Origin: Escherichia coli
Lineage (GTDB): Bacteria; Pseudomonadota; Gammaproteobacteria; Enterobacterales; Enterobacteriaceae
DNA: 64,000 nucleotides
NCBI RefSeq assembly: GCF_002854065.1
Contig: NZ_CP024147.1
Reading direction: 5' to 3' (one strand)
Under the pieces are notes generated by a model. That model was given only the letters and a program-made list of their open reading frames with translations. It had not been told where the DNA came from and ran no database searches. This document shows, piece by piece, positions 3-34,393 of the stretch (position 1 is the first letter of the stretch; each line of letters begins with the position of its first letter). The position numbers and the translations under genes are program-made.

Positions 3-431
3 GTGGTTGGCTTATTATCGCTGGCTTATTTGACCGGTACATGGAGCTCACCCAAAGCCGGAACCATGACCACCCGCTATGGGCGTGGTCCAGTGATGTT
101 GTTTTCGACGGGGGTTATGCTGTTTGGTTTACTGATGACCTTATTCAGCTCGCTGTGGCTGATCTTTGCCGGAATGTTACTCTTCTCAGCCGGATTCTTC
201 GCAGCCCACTCAGTAGCCAGCAGCTGGATCGGCCCCCGCGCAAAACGCGCTAAAGGCCAGGCCTCCTCGCTGTATCTGTTCAGTTACTATCTGGGGTCGA
301 GTATTGCCGGGACGCTGGGTGGTTTTTTCTGGCATAACTATGGCTGGAACGGCGTCGGCGCATTTATTGCTCTGATGCTGGTCATTGCTCTGCTGGTCGG
401 GACGCGTTTGCATCGTCGTCTGCACGCCTGA
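3..431 (+). CDS. ynfM: MFS-family inner-membrane transporter, 3' portion (start lies upstream of window)
   Basis: Open frame from window edge; 142 aa hydrophobic C-terminal transporter segment; sits immediately upstream of asr as in E. coli. Confidence 0.8.
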   Translation: MVGLLSLAYLTGTWSSPKAGTMTTRYGRGPVMLFSTGVMLFGLLMTLFSSLWLIFAGMLLFSAGFFAAHSVASSWIGPRAKRAKGQASSLYLFSYYLGSSIAGTLGGFFWHNYGWNGVGAFIALMLVIALLVGTRLHRRLHA

Positions 432-434
432 AAA

Positions 435-474
435 ATAAGTCCGGACTGCGGTAAATACCCGTCCGGACTTATTG
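435..474. terminator. Inverted repeat (13-bp stem AATAAGTCCGGAC / GTCCGGACTTATT, about 14-nt loop) just after the ynfM stop; possible terminator or structured element
   Basis: Perfect complementarity read directly from sequence; no strong T-run follows, so terminator function is uncertain. Confidence 0.3.
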
Positions 475-737
475 CCTGCTCAAACCAACGTTAATAGCCA
501 TCCTAAAATAGACGAAGCGCCAGCCAATTCCCGCAGCGCGTCTAGCGTCATCAGGATTATAAGTACCCAAATAAACGGATTCATTTTGCTGTGTGTCATT
601 TATTACTGATGCGCAGTTATTCTACCGCTTTGTAAGTAGTAAAATAGTTAACCCGATCAAGACTACTATTATTGGTAGCTAAATTTCCCTTAAGTCACAA
701 TACGTTATTATCAATGCTGTAATTTATTCAGCGTTTG

Positions 738-32315: not shown

Positions 32316-33317
32316 ATGATTGATACCACCCTGCCATTAACTGATATCCATCGCCACCTTGATGGCAACATTCGTCCCCAGACCATTCTTGAACTTGGCC
32401 GCCAGTATAATATCTCGCTTCCTGCACAATCCCTGGAAACACTGATTCCCCACGTTCAGGTCATTGCCAACGAACCCGATCTGGTGAGCTTTCTGACCAA
32501 ACTTGACTGGGGCGTTAAAGTTCTCGCCTCTCTTGATGCTTGTCGCCGCGTGGCATTTGAAAACATTGAAGATGCAGCCCGTCACGGCCTGCACTATGTC
32601 GAGCTGCGTTTTTCTCCAGGCTACATGGCAATGGCACATCAGCTGCCTGTTGCAGGTGTTGTTGAAGCGGTGATCGATGGCGTACGTGAAGGTTGCCGCA
32701 CCTTTGGTGTGCAGGCGAAGCTTATCGGCATTATGAGCCGAACCTTCGGCGAAGCCGCCTGTCAGCAAGAGCTGGAGGCCTTTTTAGCCCACCGTGACCA
32801 GATTACCGCACTTGATTTAGCCGGTGATGAACTTGGTTTCCCGGGAAGTCTGTTTCTTTCTCACTTCAACCGCGCGCGTGATGCGGGCTGGCATATTACC
32901 GTCCATGCAGGCGAAGCTGCCGGGCCGGAAAGCATCTGGCAGGCGATTCGTGAACTGGGTGCGGAGCGTATTGGACATGGCGTAAAAGCCATTGAAGATC
33001 GGGCGCTGATGGATTTTCTCGCCGAGCAACAAATTGGTATTGAATCCTGTCTGACCTCCAATATTCAGACCAGCACCGTGGCTGAGCTGGCTGCACATCC
33101 GCTGAAAACGTTCCTTGAGCATGGCATTCGTGCCAGCATTAACACTGACGATCCCGGCGTACAGGGAGTGGATATCATTCACGAATATAACGTTGCCGCG
33201 CCAGCTGCTGGGTTATCCCGCGAGCAAATCCGCCAGGCACAGATTAATGGTCTGGAAATGGCTTTCCTCAGCGCTGAGGAAAAACGCGCACTGCGAGAAA
33301 AAGCCGCAGCGAAGTAA
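32316..33317 (+). CDS. add: Adenosine deaminase
   Basis: 333 aa; metal-binding HxH motif near the N-terminus (DIHRHLDG) and conserved SLNTDDP motif near the C-terminus. Confidence 0.95.
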
Positions 33318-33322
33318 CAAAA

Positions 33323-33349
33323 ATGGATGGTGCAAATTGCACCATCCAT
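33323..33349. terminator. Bidirectional rho-independent terminator between convergent add and ydgJ
   Basis: Stem ATGGATGGTGC / GCACCATCCAT, 5-nt loop, with an A-run upstream and T-run downstream so it serves both strands. Confidence 0.6.
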
Positions 33350-33352
33350 TTT

Positions 33353-34393
33353 TCATGCAAGGCACAAAGTCGCGCGATGTTTGGCGGATTCAATGCCCAG
33401 CTCAATCAACTCCATTACCTGGATTGCCTGGCTTGCCGGAACCGGATTTTCACCATCGCCATTTAACGCATCACGAATCGCCGCATAGTAAGCCGGATAA
33501 TTCCCAGGCACCGTCAACAGCGTTTCTTCGACACGTTCCTCACCTACCACGCGGGTAAGTACGCCATCACGCATATCGTAGCCCCAGTCTTCCTGCGGCA
33601 GACGCTCGCCACTTTTCAGACGTTCTTCCTGTGGATCGAGGCCATATTTCACATAACTGCCTCGGGATCCATGCACGATATACCGTGCTGACTCAGCGGC
33701 TGCCAGCATGGTACCGTGTAAAATGACTCGCCGCTGTGGATAGGACAAGATGGCGTGGAAATAATCGGTCGACTGCGCTCCGGGCCGTAACTGTGCCAAA
33801 TCTACCGTCATGCTGACCGGTAAACCAAATAGCGTAATGGCCTGATCAAGAAGATGTGGTGCTAAATCGTACCAGATACCGCTGCCTGGGCCGCCCTGTT
33901 CACGCCAACGATCGCGCACCTGCGGACGGAAGCGGTCAAAATGAGACTCAAAGTAAGCAACTTCACCCAGCACGCCTTCCGCGAGCAAACCTTTTAGCGT
34001 CAAGAAATCGCTATCCCAACGACGGTTATGGAATACAGACAGCACACGCCCCAGGCTTTTTGCCAGCGCATCCAGCTCTCGCGCTTGTGACAGTGTCACG
34101 GTAAAGGGTTTATCAACGACCACATGTTTACCCGCCTCAAGCGCCGCTTTGGCTAACAGGAAATGGGTATCGTTGGGTGTAGGAATGACAATCAGGTCTA
34201 TGTTGGGATCGTTAAACAGATGCTTCGGCTCAGAGACAACCGTAACCGTTGGCCAGTCGGCTTTTACTTTTGTTTCATCACTGCTGGAGATTACCGCCAG
34301 TTCCAGCCCGGGCGTGCCCGCAATCAGGGGCGCATGGAAGGTTTTGCTCGCATAACCATACCCAATCAACCCAACACGGATGTTGTCGCTCAT
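33353..34393 (-). CDS. ydgJ: Gfo/Idh/MocA-family NAD(P)-dependent oxidoreductase
   Basis: ORF-track frame 33353..34432; start moved to the ATG at 34393 (MSDNIRVGLIGYGYASK) with GAGAGG ribosome-binding site, giving 346 aa. Confidence 0.85.
   Translation of the reverse strand: MSDNIRVGLIGYGYASKTFHAPLIAGTPGLELAVISSSDETKVKADWPTVTVVSEPKHLFNDPNIDLIVIPTPNDTHFLLAKAALEAGKHVVVDKPFTVTLSQARELDALAKSLGRVLSVFHNRRWDSDFLTLKGLLAEGVLGEVAYFESHFDRFRPQVRDRWREQGGPGSGIWYDLAPHLLDQAITLFGLPVSMTVDLAQLRPGAQSTDYFHAILSYPQRRVILHGTMLAAAESARYIVHGSRGSYVKYGLDPQEERLKSGERLPQEDWGYDMRDGVLTRVVGEERVEETLLTVPGNYPAYYAAIRDALNGDGENPVPASQAIQVMELIELGIESAKHRATLCLA

Follow-up and report, generated by a model that had tools for sequence, protein, structure and literature searches.

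Bidirectional termination sites are known for many convergent gene pairs of Escherichia coli, and the SEnd-seq work of Ju et al. in 2019 reportedly describes bidirectional terminators at such pairs. The spacer between ynfM and asr has an earlier record as well: according to PMC4070566, Raghavan et al. 2011 (Genome Res 21:1487) reported from RNA-seq in E. coli an intergenic RNA, 'ynfM-asr', that is independent of Hfq and has a Rho-independent terminator.

We examined a long inverted repeat located directly after ynfM in a window of E. coli DNA (the whole stretch analysed, 64,000 nucleotides), which starts inside ynfM, shows 100% identity to E. coli chromosomes and converts to K-12 numbering as window position = NC_000913.3 position minus 1670521. 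A first-pass annotation had considered the repeat unlike a canonical intrinsic terminator. From this examination, we consider it likely that the repeat is the hairpin of an intrinsic terminator placed at the junction of ynfM and a convergent gene of the KPN_01571 family, and that within Escherichia it mainly serves this small minus-strand gene. The positions of the features discussed are collected in Table 1.

Table 1. Features around the ynfM 3' end and the reference terminator of the same window (window positions; d, terminator discriminant)
Feature	Positions	Strand	Details
ynfM, 3' part (MFS transporter)	3..431	+	stop TGA 429-431; from the ORF list and the RefSeq annotation of identical or near-identical E. 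coli records
U-tract of the putative minus-strand terminator	431..438	-	AAAAATAA on the plus strand, UUAUUUUU in minus-strand RNA; tail score T=3.5-3.7, d=+5.0
Hairpin	434..473		outer stem 434-446/461-473, 13 bp perfect; inner pairs 448-460, 450-459, 451-458, 452-457; apical loop 453-456; d=-15.8 on the plus strand, +5.0 on the minus strand
Weak U-rich tail	469..480	+	UUAUUGCCUGCU; best d=-15.8
Small membrane-protein gene, KPN_01571 family (NF033695, 'trnsprt_adja_30')	480..599	-	ORF; NCBIfam match; PGAP; coding signature
Candidate -10 element TAGAAT	619..624	-	about 35 nt upstream of the conserved ATG; predicted
Canonical terminator used for calibration	33319..33353		d=+21.9 on the plus strand, +32.7 on the minus strand

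A stable hairpin between two convergent stop codons

The two arms, AATAAGTCCGGAC (434-446) and GTCCGGACTTATT (461-473), show full complementarity and are separated by 14 nt. The 13-bp perfect inverted repeat reported in the first-pass annotation is therefore real, with two corrections: its coordinates, given there as 435-474, were off by one, and the gap to the ynfM stop comprises two bases (432-433) instead of 4 bp. The spacing of roughly 14 nt was also right, but these nucleotides do not form an open loop. It was noted that they pair further through G448-C460, G450-C459, G451-C458 and T452-A457, leaving only a 4-nt apical loop above an upper stem that contains a bulge and an internal mismatch; the GC core of the hairpin reads GUCCGGAC / GUCCGGAC. 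Structure prediction, which had been proposed as a check, bore the repeat out: the whole hairpin comprises 17 bp and folds at -22.3 kcal/mol on either strand (z = -6.9), and none of 200 shuffled sequences folded as well. Among the local folds of the ynfM-asr spacer it was the most stable by far (-23 versus -14 for the second).

Repeats of this kind are rare by chance. In first-order Markov simulations of the window, perfect inverted repeats of at least 13 bp with a loop of 3-20 nt occurred at a mean of 0.04 per 64 kb, and they were present in only 5 of 200 simulations. Two exist in the real window, the hairpin after ynfM and a canonical terminator at 33319-33353. The latter, AAAAATGGATGGTGCAAATTGCACCATCCATTTTT, is located right after a TAA codon (33315-33317) and is by its discriminant a textbook bidirectional intrinsic terminator on both strands.

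Some further features of the arms were recorded. The arm segments 439-446 and 461-468 each contain GTCCGGAC, which is itself palindromic, so that in this strain the arms are direct as well as inverted repeats. This self-symmetry is gone in other Escherichia (GTCCGGGT/ACCCGGAC, GCCCGGGT/ACCCGGGC) and, because it is lost there, appears incidental.

On its other side the hairpin lies 6 nt past the stop codon of the small gene, which is convergent with ynfM. This gene encodes 39 aa from ATG 599-597, or 34 aa (MNPFIWV...) from the conserved start ATG 584-582, and ends at TGA 482-480. Its product is hydrophobic, and the ORF matches NF033695 with 63.3 bits against a cutoff of 35. PGAP annotates the gene in most complete E. 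coli genomes; it is unannotated in the K-12 MG1655 RefSeq record NC_000913.3, where the locus is 1671001-1671120. In ynfM loci surveyed with tblastn from 80 Enterobacteriaceae species, a homologue stood tail-to-tail with ynfM in 26, including Escherichia, some Citrobacter, Klebsiella, Raoultella, Kosakonia and Phytobacter. The conserved core of the protein is MNPFxWxxxxLxxxDAxRExxGxSSxL. Column entropy summed by codon position across the 26 species was 23/7/35, with the third position the most variable and the second the least, and this is the signature of a translated gene.

The small protein is possibly a partner of the MFS transporter YnfM. In the literature on small proteins, the locus goes unmentioned in the supplement to the Stringer et al. 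2021 preprint and in the main texts of another E. coli ribosome-profiling paper and of an Enterobacteriaceae microproteome preprint. A useful by-product of the analysis is one of annotation, namely that the MG1655 record lacks this conserved ('transporter-adjacent') gene for a small membrane protein.

Reading the hairpin on both strands

Viewed on the minus strand, the repeat has the features expected of an intrinsic terminator. The stem-loop is stable and GC-rich with a short loop, closely follows a gene read from that strand, is maintained as a paired structure in evolution, and is followed by a U-rich tract, since the stem runs directly into UUAUUUUUCAGG. The order in minus-strand RNA is ...UGA GCAGGC, the hairpin and then UUUUUCAGG, and the tail becomes UUAUUUUU when the A-U base of the stem is counted. 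This tract extends over the stem base and the final nucleotide of the ynfM stop codon. The earlier statement that the repeat has no U-tract thus holds for the plus strand and fails on the minus strand, and the contrast with canonical intrinsic terminators falls with it, given the 4-nt loop and the UUAUUUUU tail 6 nt after a stop codon. That contrast had been drawn because one strand was read and the convergent gene at 480-599 was missed. Hairpins accordingly need to be read on both strands before they are labelled non-canonical.

On the plus strand, the U-rich tract that should immediately follow the stem is lacking for ynfM. Only UUAUUGCC follows the hairpin there, degenerating past five bases, and positions 474-479 vary freely among Escherichia (GCCTGC, GCCAGC, GCTTGC, GTCTGC, GTTTAC). 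With this tail the hairpin would be no more than a partial terminator of ynfM; since it retains the proximal UUAUU, partial activity is possible. The convergent arrangement of a bidirectional layout is in place, with a good tract on the minus strand and a weak one on the plus strand.

The discriminants in Table 1 are of the d'Aubenton-Carafa type with ViennaRNA energies and are approximate values; that of the minus strand is only marginally positive. Judged by the classical criteria, the hairpin would be a modest intrinsic terminator of the small gene and would fail as a terminator of ynfM. A simple promoter and terminator scan left the hairpin unflagged, as the bulged upper stem exceeds its 8-nt loop limit.

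If the hairpin acts as proposed, RNA polymerase on the small gene would pass the stop codon at 482-480 and go on through the GC-rich stem-loop (473 to 434) into the tract UUAUUUUU (438 to 431). Hairpin formation in the exit channel and melting of the weak rU:dA hybrid would release a transcript of about 185 nt with a predicted 3' end near 426-432. On the plus strand, the same hairpin would be a leaky ynfM terminator at best, or alternatively a block to 3' exonucleases that sets the end of ynfM mRNA whose transcription has terminated at a site beyond the hairpin. Termination itself and its efficiency on either strand are what we infer from these features.

The candidate -10 element TAGAAT does not vary among six Escherichia species and also occurs in Citrobacter, and other genera carry CATAAT or TAAACT at the equivalent place (compared at window 619-624 on the minus strand and at the equivalent positions of eight further loci). 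A simple sigma-70 scan gave no full promoter for the small gene, and no good -35 was seen near TAGAAT. Were TAGAAT the -10 of the small gene, the predicted transcript would extend from near 612 to near 428 and, at about 185 nt, have the size of an sRNA.

Mapped transcript ends were also consulted. Among the entries listed in the accessible portion of the Term-seq data of Adams et al. 2021, 3' ends are given inside ynfM (1669718) and ydgD (1672076), and none at K-12 16709xx-16710xx. The SMRT-Cappable-seq supplements give no 3' end near the hairpin, and the supplement of a terminator-prediction paper has no entry for the site. Both genes may be poorly expressed in those conditions. The terminator of the 'ynfM-asr' RNA is very probably the hairpin at 434-473, because this is the only terminator-like structure in the spacer, and an earlier catalogue may already list the transcript of the small gene as the non-coding sRNA 'ynfM-asr'.

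Evolution of the hairpin and alternative explanations

We assessed the history of the stem in an alignment of ten Escherichia sequences, comprising E. coli variants, two cryptic-clade genomes, E. albertii, E. whittamii and Escherichia sp. MOD1. The hairpin is syntenic across the species, and 97.7% of the outer-stem cells are paired, so that the conservation whose absence would have counted against the repeat was found. Compensatory double changes occurred at three of the 13 outer pairs: 440/467 (T-A to C-G), 445/462 (A-T to G-C) and 446/461 (C-G to T-A). Covariation measures as high as those observed arose in only 9 to 11 of 500 column shuffles, and RNAalifold on the minus strand recovered the same stem; because the sample of ten sequences is small, the covariation supports the structure and is no proof of it. 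The apical loop differs in sequence and length, and the spacing between the arms is 14, 16 or 18 nt within the genus. The basal AAUAA/UUAUU is invariant, and every Escherichia species sampled retains the adjoining run of 5-6 A.

Variation within E. coli bears on the two strands differently. The change T440C was found in 1316 of 5426 complete genomes (~24%), with the right arm unchanged in about 1307. In minus-strand RNA it gives a G·U wobble (-20.9 to -21.7 kcal/mol) and in plus-strand RNA a C·A mismatch (-14.8 to -17.2 kcal/mol). The stem variant G461A of E. coli strain MEW has the same polarity as T440C. E. albertii is the opposite intermediate, with U·G in plus-strand RNA and C·A in minus-strand RNA, so that the asymmetry between the strands is no more than a tendency. 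In MEW (NZ_CM192120.1, locus positions ~1-400), it was also noted that an IS200C copy abuts the left arm at the equivalent of window 434, where it takes the place of the A-run and the ynfM stop junction and sets its own terminator-like hairpin (CCCCCAGC...GCTGGGGGTTTT) beside the arm.

In the other genera with a small gene convergent to ynfM, the spacer nearly always has a GC-rich hairpin of unrelated sequence. The U-tract lies on the ynfM (plus) strand in Kosakonia and Phytobacter, is weak on both strands in Citrobacter, and is clear on neither strand in Klebsiella and Raoultella. Because the side of the tract varies, what is conserved across genera is a hairpin between convergent stops and not a minus-strand terminator. 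In eight loci of Klebsiella, Raoultella and relatives the convergent stops are only 28-35 nt apart, and their spacers are filled by a GC hairpin, e.g. ACGTGGCC...GGCCACGT, with no clear U-tract on either strand. One further locus has its two stop codons 1 nt apart and no hairpin.

A true bidirectional terminator is a possibility to which we give a tentative, minority share of belief. Here the hairpin, with AAAAAUAA on one side and UUAUU on the other, would stop both transcripts efficiently, possibly aided by head-on collisions of RNA polymerases, a form of collision-assisted bidirectional termination described in bioRxiv 10.1101/2022.10.23.513370. A single hairpin within a few nucleotides of two convergent stops invites this reading, as do the first five tail bases (UUAUU), which are identical on both strands and belong to the invariant stem base. 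The U·G that E. albertii keeps on the plus strand, a plus-strand tail richer in U in some lineages (e.g. UUAUUGUUUAC), and the U-tract on the ynfM strand of the equivalent hairpin in Kosakonia and Phytobacter are likewise consistent with it. Efficient termination of ynfM is, however, poorly matched by a plus-strand discriminant of -15.8, by bases 474-479, which are unconstrained and GC-rich in most E. coli, and by the C·A mismatch that ~24% of E. coli genomes tolerate in the plus-strand stem.

We regard it as rather unlikely that the hairpin is solely a stability or processing element, with transcripts ending elsewhere (e.g. through Rho) and 3'-5' exonucleases trimming them back to a hairpin that protects the ynfM mRNA, the small-gene mRNA or both. 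A strong hairpin directly after each stop codon would suit such a role, and the Klebsiella and Raoultella hairpins, without U-tracts on both strands, fit a protective hairpin better than an intrinsic terminator; among the Term-seq entries listed in the accessible data, the lack of a 3' end here means that nothing there contradicts it. The run of 5-6 A (U in minus-strand RNA) beside the stem argues the other way, as it is conserved in all Escherichia species sampled although it belongs to neither coding region. A hairpin that served purely to block exonucleases could do without it, and the conserved run therefore indicates that the U-tract matters on the minus strand. A protective role is possible for the ynfM mRNA on the plus strand especially. 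The first-pass proposal of an RNA processing or stability element in the ynfM 3' UTR was close in naming an element of RNA 3' ends, although a terminator is the better reading.

A more elaborate arrangement, which we hold to be improbable, would make the terminator an asymmetric insulator. The small-gene transcript would be stopped efficiently and part of ynfM transcription would read through, giving RNA antisense to the KPN_01571-family mRNA and collisions of RNA polymerases. Expression of YnfM would then be coupled inversely to that of the small protein, possibly its accessory subunit or regulator, and T440C would tune this coupling between E. coli lineages because it weakens only the plus-strand hairpin.

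It is very unlikely that the repeat acts at the level of DNA, as the operator of a dimeric regulator or as a cruciform acting on asr or ynfM. The perfect 13-bp palindromic pair is compatible with such a dyad, and RcdA, H-NS and RpoD holoenzyme are reported to bind somewhere in the ynfM-asr spacer (RcdA: PMC3535384). The RpoD, H-NS and minor-sigma SELEX papers nevertheless assign their signals in the spacer to asr, the proposed RpoD promoter (GTCACA-18-TGTAAT) falls near 693-722 and is likewise assigned to asr, and the RcdA box TTGTnnACA (PMC3535384) is absent from 434-473. The spacing between the arms varies and the spacer sequence is unconserved; complementarity is kept rather than sequence, and single-sided changes compatible with G·U are frequent. 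An RcdA-type operator was rejected on the box mismatch, on a spacing that moves from 14 to 16-18 nt, and on half-sites that change complementarily. The protein-binding dyad raised in the first-pass annotation is disfavoured on these grounds, and its other suggestion, an element of the extended asr upstream region, gained nothing, as no finding links the hairpin to the control of asr: it is placed at the 3' ends of genes, ~380 nt from asr with the small gene in between.

We give next to no weight to a repeated extragenic family (REP/BIME or similar) or a mobile-element remnant: the hairpin is extragenic and IS200C abuts its left arm in MEW, but it is present as one copy in 5421 of 5426 E. coli genomes (word size 11, E up to 10), has no other close copy in the window (the nearest being 2 mismatches from a single arm), has no Rfam family match and keeps a syntenic position among Escherichia species. 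The Rfam scan of positions 1-1500 (E up to 10) returned nothing overlapping 380-900 and two chance matches, both elsewhere. REP/BIME membership was rejected at a median of 1 place per genome and a highest value of 2 across 5421 genomes, so that the search for the dyad elsewhere upheld the earlier remark that it does not resemble REP.

Comparison with known systems

The hairpin resembles REP/BIME elements in being an extragenic, GC-containing palindrome at a gene 3' end, and differs from them in being single-copy and in lacking a match to the REP consensus. With the bidirectional terminators of convergent pairs it shares the placing of one hairpin between two genes, flanked by an A-tract and, on the opposite side, a T-tract. 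It differs in a plus-strand tail that degenerates past five bases (UUAUUGCC).

The 'ynfM-asr' sRNA candidate of Raghavan, Groisman and Ochman 2011 is, as described in the citing paper PMC4070566, an Hfq-independent RNA from the same intergenic region with a Rho-independent terminator. The transcript proposed here would by contrast be a small mRNA with an ORF of 34-39 codons and not a non-coding sRNA.

The closest likeness is to the Rho-independent terminators of E. coli. The bulged and mismatched upper stem, which simple scanners miss, sets the hairpin apart from them, as does a U-tract that is broken by one A and partly pairs with the upstream A-tract, with a marginal d of +5.0 versus +22 to +33 for the canonical terminator of the same window. 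In common with them it has a GC-rich stem-loop, a short apical loop, a U-rich run (UUAUUUUU, minus strand), a place within nucleotides of a stop codon, and compensatory changes in its stem. Being probably an intrinsic terminator of a routine sort, possibly weakly bidirectional, where two genes converge, the hairpin itself matters little; it is a known kind of element, and probably an instance that has already been reported.
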